IMG/VR virus record: IMGVR_UViG_3300011008_000002
Reading direction: 5' to 3' (one strand)
DNA: 64,000 bases
DNA from: a virus
Taxonomy: Duplodnaviria; Caudoviricetes
Positions 8,965-35,786 of this stretch are shown piece by piece. Position 1 is the stretch's first letter. Every line of letters begins with the position of its first letter. The position numbers and the translations under genes were made by a program. The notes under the pieces are model-generated. The model did no database searches. It worked only from the letters and a program-made list of their open reading frames with translations, and was not told the origin of the DNA.

Positions 8965-9345
8965 TAAATATTCCTATACAAAAAAAGTAATGGGAGGTTC
9001 AACTGATGGCACAGTATTCCCTCCCGAGTTGTCAACTAATTAGCTGATATCGACAGCAGTAGGCGTATATTTGATTTGATCATAATAAGGTACGCCTACT
9101 GCCCATGTTGTCTGCCTAGAATCAGCTTTAACAAACAGCTGTTTCCCAATGGCTTCCAACTTGGGTGATAGGTGATGAACTGGTTTCCCGTATGTACTTA
9201 TACGGGAAGCCAAGTTCATCTCTAGTCCTCATATCGAGTTCCATATCTAATTACCTCCTTTCATAAAGTATAAATAGAAAGTATTATACTTTCTATTTAT
9301 CTAAGTATTTAATATAGTTACAAAAAGTCTATGAACCTGAATTTT
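8965..9345 (-). repeat. MELD element copy 1 (promoter, palindrome, frameshifted peptide gene, terminator)
   Basis: Homologous to 22715-23031; ATG 9244 with SD AAAGGAGG; conserved C-terminal peptide lies in the +1 frame ending at 9040. Confidence 0.8.
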
Positions 9346-22440: not shown

Positions 22441-22474
22441 GTATTACTTTTTATCATAAGTATAACAAAAAATA

Positions 22475-22680
22475 ATCTAGGAAGTCAGACCTATGGCTCA
22501 GTTTAACTCCCCAGTTCGACCGCATTCGGCTATGCTAACGCATTGAGCCAAACATTAACGCGAGCTCTCTCATAACGCTGAAAGAAGCTCATACGATCGT
22601 CGGCACTTGTTTCAGGTGCCGAAACCTACCTCGTAATCACTGGCTTTGAGACAGCTCTTGGGTGGTTACGAGGTGTTTGT
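22475..22680. ncRNA. candidate multi-stem structured RNA E
   Basis: GC-rich, non-coding; stems TGGCTCA/TGAGCCA, GAGCT/AGCTC, TCGGCACTTG/CAGGTGCCGA, ACCTCGTAATCAC/GTGGTTACGAGGT. Confidence 0.55.
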
Positions 22681-22714
22681 GCTGTAGTAGCCACTTATAT
22701 TATTTATAAAAGAT

Positions 22715-23031
22715 TCAATATTCCTATACAAAAAAGTAATGGTAGGTTCAACTGATAGTGGTCAGTATTCCCTCCCAAAACACATCGTCAGCTAATTAGC
22801 CGTAAATAACACGAGGTATGTACTTGATTTGCTGTGAGTATGGTACGCCCACAGCCCATGTGGAGTTTTTCAGGTCAGCCTTATCAAAGAACTGTTTCCT
22901 GAGAGACTTCAACTTGTCTGGTAACTGCTGAGCAGTTGGGATATTCTCCTAAACCTGCTCAGCAGTTCTCATATCGAGTTCCATATCTAATTATTTAATA
23001 TAGTTGCAAAAAGTCTATGAACCTGAAATTT
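22715..23031 (-). repeat. MELD element copy 2 (peptide ORF 22796-22984 with TAG in a hairpin loop)
   Basis: Homologous to 8965-9345; in-frame TAG at 22949-22951 inside a 13-bp inverted repeat. Confidence 0.8.
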
Positions 23032-23087
23032 ATTATATATGGTAAAAAGATTGATAGGATACGTTTAGTTTCCTATCAATCTTCTCT

Positions 23088-24719
23088 TTAATGCACTGGT
23101 TCCAAATCAAATATATCATCTGTAACCAAATCTTTATCCATCAAAGGATTTTTGTGAGACGACCGTCCTCTAGTGTTAAATAACATATCTGCACTAACCC
23201 CTTCCATATTCGTATCAAGACTAATGATACCCAATGGTTTCGATAATAATACATCGTTAATCATAGAGAATTCATTGTCTTTATGGAACGGTTGATTGAA
23301 ATAAGTTAATTTAGTGGATGGTCTATAACGTTCCTTCAATCTACTAAACGACAAATACAACTGACCAGTATCTTTCTTTCGTTCAAGATTTAGACCAATC
23401 GACATATCAGGGTTTTCCATAACTTCATATGCAGAACCTACATTTTCACCACCAATGAATCTAGCTAAATCAGCTTTTCCATCTCTTGCGGCTGCGTTCA
23501 ATGTAGCTAATGCATTTCTGTTATATTGGTGAGCTGATACTACCGATATTTGATAGTCAATCGCAATCTGTCGTATTTCATTCGTCACATTTTTGAGCAT
23601 CTCTTTTTCATCTCTTGCTCTTTGATGTGGAAGGATACGTTTTATGTAGTCGAAACTAACCATAATTACTTCTTTTCCTGACATAGCAAGCTCATCAATA
23701 ATATCACGAATATCCTCTGTAGTGATACTCATATTCGCACGATACATGAATATGATACCAATTTCATCATTACAAATGATTTTCTTCTCTTTGAGTTTCT
23801 TTACTATATCAGCAGGACTGTTCTTTTCGACATCCGTATTTTCCACTTCCATATTCCAAACACGAGCAAAAGACTCATCTATGGTATTCTCCATAGTAAG
23901 ATATAATACATAAGGTTTCATACCTTCATGTTTCGGTTTGAATGTTTTAGCATTAAACTTCGCACAATCGAGTACCACCTTTAATAACATAGCTGATTTG
24001 AAACCGCCAGTTACACCTAAGAACATATATAATTTTCCAGGTCGGAATCCTGGAGAAAGCATTTCATTTAACATTTGCACGCCGGTGATTATGATAGAAG
24101 ATTGATCTCCTAATCGTTCTGTTATTTCACCTACACGTTCTACAATGTTTGGATCGTTAAAATCAAGCATTCCACTATTCCAAATAGTAGAGATTTGTCT
24201 TTGGGCGGTCATATAATCACGTATCCAAAGTTTGACATCATCATTAATGTCTCTATATGATGAAAAATCCCCGCTCTCAACTGTTTCTATAACTTCCTTT
24301 ATACGAGGAATTTGGTTAATAAGCGACCCATATGTCAGCCTATCCTCAATAAAGTTTGTAACAAAGTCAATTTCTTTGTAGTTAAGGGCTTTATATCTGT
24401 CCAAATTCTTTAGAATTTCCTCAACTTGTTCACTCGGATTATCTGGTGTACAATAACTGAGGACAATTCCTTCGTCTTCGTATCTTTTATCGAGCTTTGC
24501 GTCGAGTGCTTTTAAGATAAATCGCACTCGTTCCATAATGACCATTCTGTTCTTGTAGTTCTCATAATCACATTGCAAAAGTAACTTTTGTACATTGCGT
24601 AAATTCAAGTTCGTAATATTCTTACTCTTCTTGAATATATACCCAATGATTTTATTTAACATCGTAACGTCCCACCGGATGTTACGAAGCGGTTCTTTAA
24701 CCATTTCTGTATCACCCAC
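23088..24719 (-). CDS. DnaB-like replicative helicase
   Basis: GVTGGFKS Walker A, YLTMEN, FDYI, SAHQYNR, KERY. Confidence 0.88.
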   Translation of the reverse strand: MGDTEMVKEPLRNIRWDVTMLNKIIGYIFKKSKNITNLNLRNVQKLLLQCDYENYKNRMVIMERVRFILKALDAKLDKRYEDEGIVLSYCTPDNPSEQVEEILKNLDRYKALNYKEIDFVTNFIEDRLTYGSLINQIPRIKEVIETVESGDFSSYRDINDDVKLWIRDYMTAQRQISTIWNSGMLDFNDPNIVERVGEITERLGDQSSIIITGVQMLNEMLSPGFRPGKLYMFLGVTGGFKSAMLLKVVLDCAKFNAKTFKPKHEGMKPYVLYLTMENTIDESFARVWNMEVENTDVEKNSPADIVKKLKEKKIICNDEIGIIFMYRANMSITTEDIRDIIDELAMSGKEVIMVSFDYIKRILPHQRARDEKEMLKNVTNEIRQIAIDYQISVVSAHQYNRNALATLNAAARDGKADLARFIGGENVGSAYEVMENPDMSIGLNLERKKDTGQLYLSFSRLKERYRPSTKLTYFNQPFHKDNEFSMINDVLLSKPLGIISLDTNMEGVSADMLFNTRGRSSHKNPLMDKDLVTDDIFDLEPVH

Positions 24720-33422: not shown

Positions 33423-35786
33423 ATGAGACTTATACAAGTTCGTGACAATAAAAACCGCCCGATAAATAATCTGGATGTAATGGTCGGTGCCTTGTTTGGT
33501 GACAAGGTACCGAAGGAATTTATACCAGATAAATACTACAAGGCGGGAGAGCGAGTTTATGCTCTCGACTCAAATGGTAATTTGAATGTCTGGTCCTGCA
33601 ATATAAGCGGGAAATTTAAGTCTTGCAAAGAACCTAATTTCTCTGAATGGTCTCTAAATTCCATTATTGAGAATGCAAGACGTACAACAGTCACAACAGG
33701 AGAACCGATAAATGCAGTTATGTATGAGTGTAAATCAGCGGTTTCTCCAAGAGATGAGTATATGGAGTATGATGGTAGAGCTCATTTTGATACGACCGTC
33801 AATGACTTCAGCTTAAATGATTATACAGGAGAAGGAGATATTATAGATGTATATCTCCGTAGGGAACATTCTGACCACTATCTTAGAAAGGAAGATTACA
33901 GGTTCGTTGGAAAGAAACTCAGTGTTGCTCTTCCTCTTGAGGATATGACAGATGAATCAAATGCAGGTACTATCTTCTTACCTGCTGGTAGAGAAGTCAC
34001 CGATATTGGACAGGAAAAGTATTGGTATGGCGAAAATGGTAAAGTCAAAACCGTTGCTGATCAAAACATCAACGGAGTACAGGTAACGGACTTTGATATT
34101 CTTGAAACATTGGGTAAATCCATTGAGTATGGGTATAAGATTGGTAACTTGAATATCGTATCCGTACATACGGTAACTGGTTCTCCTATGAACCATACTC
34201 TGGAAGATGATATCTATCGTCTTGATGAATTCGAGATTGGAAATCATGCTGCAATCGGTAATGATACAGAAGGAGATATCCAGAGTGTTACGGTACACGT
34301 TGACATTGAACCTGAAAGAGGTATATGGGATGAATTGACTGTAACTTATTCTAAGGAAACTCAACTCGTCTCTATGCAATCTTTGAACGGGTATATTCAG
34401 CAGGTTAAGTTCAATGTAACTATGAAGAAGGATAAACCTCTCAGTATATTTATGATTGGAAGTAAAGCAATCAGCCCTATGGCTAGGTTTATCAAAGTTC
34501 TTGATGATTACGGTGAAGTTGTTGAGCATAACTCGGAGAAATTGATAAAAATACCGAGGTTTGAATTACTCAGGTATAATAGCTTTGAGTTTGAGTTGTA
34601 CGTAGATAGAGTATTCCGCAGTGATTATGAAGAAGTGGCGGACGAAGATACTGGTGAAATCTATATCAGGATGCTTAATACAAATACCATCGACTGGGAC
34701 AACACGACGTTCTTGTTCCATATCTTCTACTGTGTAACTCAATCGGCAGCTATCATCAAAACCCATGACCAGAAGAAAGTTGAAACCGAGAGAGATGCCT
34801 TCAGGTTGATGCTTACATCCTCGTTCGTAAACAAATTCCAGTGGATGAAGATGAGGGAAGACTCCAAATTGGTACCACCGGAATATGCAGTTGGAAGTAA
34901 GAATACTGCGAATATCACGAATATGGATCATTATCTGAGTATCGGTCAAACTCTAAAGGCTGATATATTCAGTATGGTTTTCAAAGATGACATTACACGT
35001 AGGGTTGGGAGTACTACTGATATTTGTAACTCAGAGTCGTATCCCATCCTTGCAGATACAAAGGAGTTTGTAATTCCTTTCTTGGATTACGATTCGGGTT
35101 TTGATGACTTCCTTATTTTTAAGGCAGGTGGCGTGCTTCTTAGTTCATCTAAGTGGTACTTAAATGGAAACTATGTGAATATGTATGTCCACGAAAATCC
35201 CTTAAGGGATGGAGATTATCTTGATTTCCGTCTGTTGGATAGGGATGAGACAGTAAGAGTGGATAATTACTTCTTCGATGTTGATACAATCAATAATTGT
35301 ATCAATACTGGAGTTGATTTACAGACGGCAGCGTTCTATTTGTTATTCACTACAAGTGGTGAGTATATAAGCTCATCCAAGTACACAGTTGAAAATGGAG
35401 TTATTACATTTAAGAATGAAGGATCTGATTGCGATCAACCTTACGAACCATATGACGGAGCGAGGGTTGAATTAGTGGTTGGTATCTATAAGCATTCTTA
35501 TAGTAAGACTCTTTATAAGATGATTCAGATTGAAGCAACTGACGAAGGTCAGAGGGAATTCTATCTGGATGAGTCGATTGAATACAACCCTGACTCAGAC
35601 AACTTACTGATTTTCAGAAAAGATGGATTGTACATCGGTGAACGGTTCTATCATACAGATGCAACCAACGGCAAAATCGTCATTGACAAAGGTTCTGGCG
35701 TTCCGCTTGGTAGTTATATTGACATCTTACTGATAAGAAATATGTCAATTAGGGTAACACCTGATACGGAAACGGAGGAACAGTGA
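33423..35786 (+). CDS. virion structural protein with repeated beta modules
   Basis: 787 aa; repeats FLIFKAGG/YLLFTTSG/LLIFRKDG each followed by a Y; same operon. Confidence 0.65.
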   Translation: MRLIQVRDNKNRPINNLDVMVGALFGDKVPKEFIPDKYYKAGERVYALDSNGNLNVWSCNISGKFKSCKEPNFSEWSLNSIIENARRTTVTTGEPINAVMYECKSAVSPRDEYMEYDGRAHFDTTVNDFSLNDYTGEGDIIDVYLRREHSDHYLRKEDYRFVGKKLSVALPLEDMTDESNAGTIFLPAGREVTDIGQEKYWYGENGKVKTVADQNINGVQVTDFDILETLGKSIEYGYKIGNLNIVSVHTVTGSPMNHTLEDDIYRLDEFEIGNHAAIGNDTEGDIQSVTVHVDIEPERGIWDELTVTYSKETQLVSMQSLNGYIQQVKFNVTMKKDKPLSIFMIGSKAISPMARFIKVLDDYGEVVEHNSEKLIKIPRFELLRYNSFEFELYVDRVFRSDYEEVADEDTGEIYIRMLNTNTIDWDNTTFLFHIFYCVTQSAAIIKTHDQKKVETERDAFRLMLTSSFVNKFQWMKMREDSKLVPPEYAVGSKNTANITNMDHYLSIGQTLKADIFSMVFKDDITRRVGSTTDICNSESYPILADTKEFVIPFLDYDSGFDDFLIFKAGGVLLSSSKWYLNGNYVNMYVHENPLRDGDYLDFRLLDRDETVRVDNYFFDVDTINNCINTGVDLQTAAFYLLFTTSGEYISSSKYTVENGVITFKNEGSDCDQPYEPYDGARVELVVGIYKHSYSKTLYKMIQIEATDEGQREFYLDESIEYNPDSDNLLIFRKDGLYIGERFYHTDATNGKIVIDKGSGVPLGSYIDILLIRNMSIRVTPDTETEEQ

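Follow-up and report, generated by a model that had tools for sequence, protein, structure and literature searches.

We found that the 19-nt loop of a hairpin in a small phage gene stands as the reverse complement of its probable ancestral orientation and carries an in-frame stop codon, and we put at about 60% the probability that a recombinase-free hairpin-loop micro-inversion thereby knocked out one paralog, dispensable and in decay, of an early mini-gene specific to this phage. The window, by which we mean the whole 64,000-nucleotide stretch of DNA analysed here, is the minus strand of positions 132958-196957 in a 229,126-bp IMG/VR virus record that is 97% complete. The DnaB-like helicase encoded in the window is 25-28% identical to those of the Bacillus phages AR9 and PBS1, of Staphylococcus jumbo phages and of Listeria LPJP1; the nearest cultured relatives are AR9/PBS1-type jumbo phages (27% helicase identity), and helicases 70-80% identical to it occur in several uncultured records of 220-245 kb. 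A whole-genome search recovered four cassettes, numbered here copies 1 to 4, and the gene with the inverted loop belongs to copy 2. It is placed between the terminator of the upstream helicase gene and a terminator of its own, and since the helicase gene ends in a terminator hairpin, copy 2 forms a separate transcription unit with the following features, given in window coordinates.

23088-24719: DnaB-like helicase gene upstream of copy 2 (Pfam DnaB_C in the cluster record)
23047..23083, minus strand: helicase terminator hairpin, an inverted repeat of 16 nt with 94% complementarity, then a T run
22984..23027, minus strand: early-type promoter block, common to copies 1 and 3, with the core ACTATATTAAAT at 23004-22993 and AGATA at 22988-22984
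22949..22984, minus strand: present-day frame, MELDMRTAEQV (11 residues), then TAG at 22951-22949 inside the loop
22955..22967, minus strand: 5' arm of the hairpin, AACTGCTGAGCAG on the coding strand, codons T-A-E-Q
22936..22954, minus strand: 19-nt loop, apparently in reverse-complement orientation relative to the ancestral coding sequence
22923..22935, minus strand: 3' arm of the hairpin, CTGCTCAGCAGTT on the coding strand, codons (P)A-Q-Q-L
22796..22948, minus strand: conserved C-terminal block (KL..KQFF.KAD...TWAVGVPY..QIKY) and stop
22730..22776, minus strand: cassette terminator (GGGAGG..ACTG..CAGT..CCTACC + T6), common to copies 1, 3 and 4

Direct reading of the sequence confirmed the perfect 13-bp inverted repeat, the 19-nt loop and the in-frame TAG on which the original prediction had been built. 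On the plus strand the arms read AACTGCTGAGCAG at 22923-22935 and CTGCTCAGCAGTT at 22955-22967, and they are perfect reverse complements with 13/13 Watson-Crick pairs. The gene is encoded on the minus strand with its ATG at 22984-22982, and its first seven codons equal those of copy 1 apart from one synonymous change. Behind the TAG the frame is open for 50 codons up to a TAA at 22798-22796, and the C-terminal block is thereby left with no start codon that it could use. If the loop is reverse-complemented, the stop disappears, as had been claimed, and an uninterrupted 62-codon frame results, in which the V*ENIP(T) encoded by the native loop is replaced by LGYSPK(P). A stop-free flip is unremarkable alone, as 58-65% of shuffled or random loops are also without a stop. 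The hairpin is markedly stable, both when folded as RNA (-27.2 kcal/mol, z = -6.5, with 0/200 shuffles as stable) and when folded as DNA (-16 kcal/mol, z = -6.6). Each arm is itself nearly palindromic (CTGCT-S-AGCAG), which makes the two arms 12/13 direct repeats as well. No further occurrence of the arm sequence was found elsewhere in the 229-kb genome when up to two mismatches were allowed. We also considered that the arms might be two operator sites for a dimeric regulator, but this found no support because the palindromic arm motif is found at copy 2 alone.

The ancestral orientation of the loop was judged from copy 1, which has 13 extra bases relative to copy 2 between the ATG and the conserved block. 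We compared a restored pair, consisting of copy 1 without these 13 hairpin-tip bases and copy 2 with its loop flipped, and found the two to be collinear and ungapped (63 aa for copy 1 and 62 aa for copy 2), the stretch from the ATG to the K-L of the conserved block measuring 23 codons in each. In this alignment the flipped loop, LGYSPKP, agrees with LGFPYKP of copy 1 at 4/7 residues plus an F/Y pair and at 9/19 nt, as against 0/7 residues and 2/19 nt for the native loop, V*ENIPT. When the loop was shuffled 200,000 times, a fraction of 5.5e-5 reached the observed BLOSUM score and 3.6e-4 the observed identity, while a cruder test against the unrepaired copy 1 gave P about 0.007. Given the restored collinearity and the match of LGYSPKP to LGFPYKP, with 0/7 for the native loop, it is well supported by this comparison of paralogs that the flipped loop represents the ancestral coding orientation of copy 2. 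The same had been proposed originally from a match of QLGY..KP to ELGF..KP, and the proposal was borne out (P about 5e-5 against shuffled loops); the match itself holds, with the qualification that the copy-1 motif appears only once the 13 hairpin-tip bases are taken out.

Were the native loop nevertheless the functional one, ribosomes would have to read through the TAG or hop over it, as in the bypass of T4 gene 60, to make a full protein from it by programmed recoding. The stop is positioned in a strong hairpin right after a sense codon (GTT TAG), superficially like the gene 60 take-off site, and the arms provide in-frame direct repeats 30 nt apart. However, there is no in-frame landing codon matching GTT, the sole nearby GTT being out of frame and reaching a TGA, and the residues of the native loop are unrelated to copy 1. 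Moreover, copy 1 would need a frameshift and copy 4 the read-through of a TAA, which leaves no common mechanism, and the genome has neither a suppressor gene nor any tRNA gene (0 in a tRNA scan). An alternative genetic code or a suppressor was rejected on the same absence of a tRNA gene, and the large ORFs of the genome are intact with the standard code. We regard recoding as barely credible.

The remaining cassettes of the family, with window coordinates for copy 1 and genome coordinates for copies 3 and 4, are these.

9040..9340, minus strand (window): copy 1 cassette, with promoter, leader hairpin at 9270-9300, AAAGGAGG, ATG at 9244 and stop at 9042-9040
9196-9184 (window): copy-1 insertion, 13 extra nt at the tip of the homologous palindrome
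86480-86960 (genome): copy 3 cassette, with promoter, leader hairpin and terminator as in the others and an unrelated intact 55-aa ORF
33983-34177 (genome): copy 4, with the same terminator and a homologous C-terminal block

Copy 1 is frameshifted by the 13-nt hairpin-tip insertion, and descriptions of its lesion as a 1-nt insertion or a 7-nt duplication were rejected by the collinearity test. As had been claimed, the damage to both paralogs lies at the same palindrome but differs in kind, being a tip insertion for copy 1 and a flipped loop for copy 2. The resulting 38-aa frameshifted ORF is present on two contigs, and the copy-1 lesion is therefore reproducible. The annotations of copy 1 diverge: JGI calls the 38-aa MELD frame (P0126), whereas NCBI/ENA calls a 59-aa frame (P0001) from an internal out-of-frame ATG, of which the first 11 residues, MNLASRISTYG, are out of the ancestral frame or encoded by the 13 extra bases, and which follows the ancestral frame from K-P onward. 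For copy 2 neither annotation pipeline calls a gene. The family hence carries a warning for annotation, two pipelines having each given a different wrong gene for copy 1 while calling nothing for copy 2. Copy 1 contains, in addition, a second inverted repeat at window 9056-9102, perfect over 12 bp with a 23-nt loop (GCAGTAGGCGTA / TACGCCTACTGC); it is copy-specific, lies within the conserved C-terminal block and has its loop in the coding orientation, a flip of which would give a TGA, and it looks like another template-switch footprint.

In copy 4, a leader hairpin of 17-18 bp and an 18-codon N-terminal frame are followed by an in-frame TAA four codons ahead of the conserved block RLEAAKDQFFTKADPRQTTWAV, with no start codon behind the TAA, and the C-terminal tail has diverged. 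The C-terminal block (KL..KQFF.KAD...TWAV) can be aligned across copies 1, 2 and 4, all of which are interrupted within the N-terminal linker and keep an open C-terminal frame. Copy 3 differs in its content: its 55-aa ORF is preceded by a strong GGGAGG site, its leader hairpin covaries (ATAGATAGAAAGT / ACTTTCTATCTAT versus ATAAATAG.. in copy 1), and we rejected it as a distant family member (BLASTP E = 1.5). The copy-3 cassette looks like a PeSL-type regulatory module that can be reused.

The family had been put forward as undescribed, and no collection that we searched held a relative. None was recovered by tblastn of 50,697 phage records, in viral contigs by protein or by terminator motif, in metagenome contigs, or by a six-frame search of four related jumbo-phage records whose helicases are 70-80% identical. 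When 5.8 billion proteins were searched by word index and 1.84 billion representatives exhaustively by profile, the window's own protein alone came back each time, and an exact look-up of the flipped 62-aa and the repaired 63-aa proteins among about 15 billion predicted proteins found neither. Pfam, PHROGs and the ESM Atlas gave no match for the family, AlphaFold2 gave a pLDDT of 54 and no functional clue, and a search with the 17-nt MELD start motif gave eight chance matches only. On these searches the family is an ORFan, an early mini-gene of roughly 62 codons known from this 229-kb AR9/PBS1-like jumbo phage alone.

The restored copies 1 and 2 also inform on the past of the gene. Divergence at their synonymous sites has reached saturation (pS 0.73-0.79, with 0.76 for the C-terminal block), whereas pN amounts to 0.41 for the linker and 0.20 for the C-terminal block, and dN/dS overall is about 0.1. 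Since pS is saturated and pN is as low as 0.20, both copies must have been functional protein-coding genes for most of their history, and this substitution pattern shows that the gene was formerly under purifying selection. The palindrome is likewise old. The 13-bp stem of copy 2 is centred at ORF nt 40 and that of copy 1 without its insertion, also of 13 bp with one bulge, at ORF nt 42; the present-day copy-1 hairpin has 19 bp and -26.9 kcal/mol. The right-arm cores are found at identical ORF nt 52-58; copy 1 has GTTCATC there, paired with GATGAAC, and copy 2 has GCTCAGC, paired with GCTGAGC, which amounts to two compensatory double changes, the left arms of the two copies being offset by one codon (3 nt). 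On the evidence of these two compensatory double changes in the core stems, the palindrome predates the duplication of copies 1 and 2. Its retention has either of two explanations, namely that the hairpin was selected or that the arms continually correct each other by templated synthesis, and quasipalindromes are known to become perfect through template switching (PMC7202029). None of the stems contains a G-U pair, all being purely Watson-Crick, and this speaks for a DNA-templated process. The family holds at least three hairpin-type events, the copy-1 tip insertion and the copy-1 12-bp repeat included.

If the first of these explanations were taken further, the hairpin itself would be the selected element, acting in mRNA stability, processing, translation control or as a DNA-level site, the orientation of the loop and the downstream frame would be irrelevant, and the unit would now work as a short peptide and a structured RNA. 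The fact that both copies, although their synonymous divergence is saturated, have equally stable hairpins in this position (-27.2 and -26.9 kcal/mol, z about -6) would fit this, as would the conservation of the promoter, the first 27 nt and the terminator, which in copies 1 and 2 is far better than in the rest of the unit, and the existence of other junction hairpins in the phage, for example one pairing the end of a 429-aa gene with the next start codon. The lack of G-U pairs, however, points to a DNA-templated origin more than to selection on RNA, and the base pairs are not strictly homologous given the 3-nt offset of the left arms. In addition, the C-terminal block displays a clear protein-coding substitution pattern, and an Rfam scan gave no match. 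We consider such selection on the hairpin alone distinctly unlikely.

The block preceding copy 2 is nearly identical to the block preceding copy 1. Its core, ACTATATTAAAW with AGATA four bases later, has 18 matches in the genome at 12/12 or 11/12, about 15/18 of which stand before genes, and most of these continue with AGATA, a leader and GGAGG; the examples in the window are at 22993-23004 and 9307-9318. The early (virion RNA polymerase) promoter consensus of AR9 is AAATATATATTAT-N6-G(+1) (PMC5312081). The extended AT-rich motif is similar to this consensus, and by analogy suggests early timing; the claim that the gene is an early one thus found an AR9-type early-promoter-like motif in its favour, the timing itself resting on that likeness. 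In copy 2, the last A of AGATA is at the same time the A of the ATG, and its mRNA would be almost leaderless if the start site is positioned as in its analogues. Copy 2 is alone in this promoter class in having neither a leader hairpin nor a Shine-Dalgarno sequence (GGAGG). This arrangement is consistent with a 51-nt deletion between two TTAGATA repeats, both of which are still present in copy 1, but the leader-less form could also be the original state. At the other end of the unit, the copy-2 terminator has one stem mismatch.

Just downstream of this terminator, an intergenic stretch at 22470-22715 on the minus strand is enriched in GC (about 48% versus 32-37% around it). Its minus-strand fold is unusually stable, at -85.6 kcal/mol with z = -5.2 (z = -3.7 for the plus strand). 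Neither Rfam nor, at the DNA level, three related jumbo-phage records gave a match to the stretch, which may be a structured RNA.

Copy 2 is known from one accessible assembly only. A near-identical 228,901-bp contig exists for the 229-kb genome, and a 2.2-kb contig from another sample ends about 250 nt before reaching copy 2. Hairpins are classic sites of in-vitro template switching, and MDA or PCR template switching, or a mis-assembly, might have flipped the copy-2 loop in the consensus. Against such an artefact, a random chimera would not normally be fixed in the consensus of a 229-kb high-quality contig, the flip is exact and length-preserving, and two contigs carry the corresponding hairpin lesion of copy 1. 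An artefact is in our view highly improbable. As a separate observation, neighbouring samples yielded two related jumbo-phage records with 99.99% identity across 57 kb, whose main differences are indels of 65 nt and 131 nt and which contain dispersed repeats of their own (65-290 nt); their pairwise comparison revealed no micro-inversions, indels only.

In the original prediction the palindrome was taken for an intragenic phase-variation switch that works by micro-inversion or template switching. Such an ON/OFF switch, or contingency locus, would alternate within the phage population between the 11-aa stub and the 62-aa early protein, whether through template switching or through an invertase. 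At least one loop flip has occurred in copy 2, the arms are perfect, as expected of recent or recurrent flipping, and the palindrome was kept between the paralogs with compensatory changes. Moreover, the three interruptions of the family fall in one linker with the C-terminal frames remaining open, which is somewhat unexpected for random decay and to that extent counts against the decay reading. Premature-stop intragenic invertons with 11-nt repeats and a 57-bp inversion are known in gut bacteria (PMC10028968), and by comparison with them the small size of the copy-2 repeat would alone be compatible with programmed flipping. However, the copy-2 arms are unique in the genome and differ from the copy-1 arms, so that no recombinase site is shared, and the lesions of copy 1 (an insertion) and copy 4 (a point nonsense mutation) are not flips. 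A spacer of 19 bp is, furthermore, too short for two recombinase sites to synapse, and the ON state would still be without a Shine-Dalgarno sequence. The absence of the flipped 62-aa protein from the about 15 billion predicted proteins is a weak argument in the same direction, as such a gene might go uncalled. A search of metagenome and viral contigs for the arm pattern with any 19-nt loop gave 0 matches. A working phase-variation switch was thus not supported, and we judge it unlikely. Signs of neutral decay, which had been named as something that would speak against a switch, are partly in evidence: copy 2 is without leader and Shine-Dalgarno sequence, copy 1 is frameshifted and copy 4 carries its TAA.

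It is also conceivable, though very doubtful, that the palindrome is a self-templated contingency switch which needs no recombinase, in which the loop is flipped or extended often enough to toggle members of the early-peptide family and the same process keeps the arms perfect; a possible benefit would be escape from a host defence that senses the peptide. If both orientations were to coexist, this would be the smallest intragenic inverton; it would need no recombinase, and would be the first from an early gene of a phage.

According to the micro-inversion reading, which we prefer, the family consists of three paralogs of the early mini-gene, each within a reusable promoter-terminator cassette, the gene carries an old palindrome in its 5' third, and the 19-nt loop of copy 2 has been reverse-complemented, which places a TAG in frame after codon 11. 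The flip most probably required no recombinase, and may have proceeded by a replication template switch inside the hairpin, as in quasipalindrome mutagenesis and the 'minute inversions' of chloroplasts, or alternatively by recombination between the two arms of an extruded cruciform. The uniqueness of the arms in the genome and the lack of a common motif among the three repeats of the family argue against a site-specific recombinase. The flip would be a plain loss-of-function allele, reversible in principle, and copy 2, being without leader and ribosome-binding site, is most likely a decaying, dispensable paralog. The sequences themselves show the hairpin, its stop, the ancestral orientation, the age of the palindrome, the former purifying selection and the further lesions; the template-switch mechanism, the early timing and the present non-function of copy 2 are what we infer.

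A flip test of 123 perfect hairpins genome-wide found no other restored frame supported by a homolog. The largest 'gain' in this test fell at genome 31754-31803, on a perfect 11-bp repeat with a 28-nt loop that pairs the last codons of the 429-aa gene with the ATG-GAA-TTT-AAT start of a 138-aa gene and contains in its loop a stop codon and an AAGGA ribosome-binding site. We rejected it as a flip case, as it is an ordinary junction hairpin between two in-frame genes; a flip of its loop would fuse both, which is probably a coincidence, and the hairpin may serve in translational coupling or occlusion.

The kind of mutation seen in copy 2 is already known, and copy 2 is a new, well-controlled example of it. 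Quasipalindrome template-switch mutations, explained by the model of Ripley 1982, were first seen in T4 rIIB and yeast CYC1 and have a hotspot in E. coli thyA (PMC7202029), and short-range template switching is also known in human genomes (bioRxiv 10.1101/2021.11.26.470150). As in these cases, the copy-2 change is confined to a hairpin bounded by 13/13 matching arms, corresponds, by comparison with a homolog, to the ancestral segment in reverse complement, and preserves length and flanks (23 codons in both copies, ungapped); the arms are perfect, there is no recombinase site, and copy 1 has a tip insertion of the same type. Unlike in these cases, the copy-2 event is deduced by comparison with a paralog, inverts a whole loop instead of correcting a stem mismatch, and affects an ORFan gene of an uncultured jumbo phage. 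What copy 2 offers is an internally controlled hairpin-loop micro-inversion knocking out a phage gene, the paralog revealing the ancestral orientation and the sister copy having been struck at the same palindrome by a different hairpin-templated lesion. On this reading, quasipalindrome mutagenesis, first drawn from T4 rII, would also shape how ORFan early genes turn over in uncultured jumbo phages.

The hairpin-borne 'minute inversions' of chloroplasts, 4-50 bp in length, are pervasive in plastomes (Kelchner and Wendel 1996; reviewed in PMC12371153). Copy 2 resembles them in its short perfect inverted repeat and in a 19-nt loop within their size range. In the course of evolution the plastid inversions arise repeatedly and can revert, with no dedicated enzyme involved, and they lie in non-coding spacers, whereas the copy-2 flip falls within a coding frame, where it introduces a stop.

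Intragenic invertons, as detected with PhaVa or PhaseFinder, include inversions as short as 57 bp with inverted repeats down to 11 nt in gut Bacteroides (PMC10028968). Copy 2 is like them in having its repeat inside the gene and in that inversion alters the coding outcome, the TAG being present in the native loop and absent from the flipped one. However, such invertons are defined by the presence of both orientations in reads and are thought to be driven by invertases, whereas copy 2 is known from a single orientation, has a spacer of only 19 bp, and has no evident cognate invertase or reused repeat motif, the arm being unique and the copy-1 repeats different.

Like copy 2, T4 gene 60 has, near its beginning, a hairpin in which a stop codon adjoins a sense codon. 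Copy 2 departs from it in that no matched landing codon is in frame (the GTT is out of frame and leads to TGA), the native loop is not homologous to copy 1, and the arrangement is not kept in the paralogs, copy 1 having a frameshifting insertion and copy 4 having its TAA but lacking the hairpin.

Finally, the cassettes recall the PeSL (promoter-early/stem-loop) cassettes of T4-type phages (PMC2839356, PMC4122927), in which a repeated promoter and a stem-loop or terminator bracket small variable ORFs of unknown function. Here, too, repeated motifs bracket variable small ORFs, the promoter in copies 1-3 and the terminator in copies 1-4, and copy 3 holds an unrelated ORF. PeSL cassettes have their own motif and a T4-type myovirus context, whereas the present ones, known from the sequence of one genome, carry different motifs in a phage whose relatives are of the AR9/PBS1 type, a lineage with its own RNA polymerases. 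Thus, judged by its arrangement, the cassette works like PeSL and is not a member of that class.
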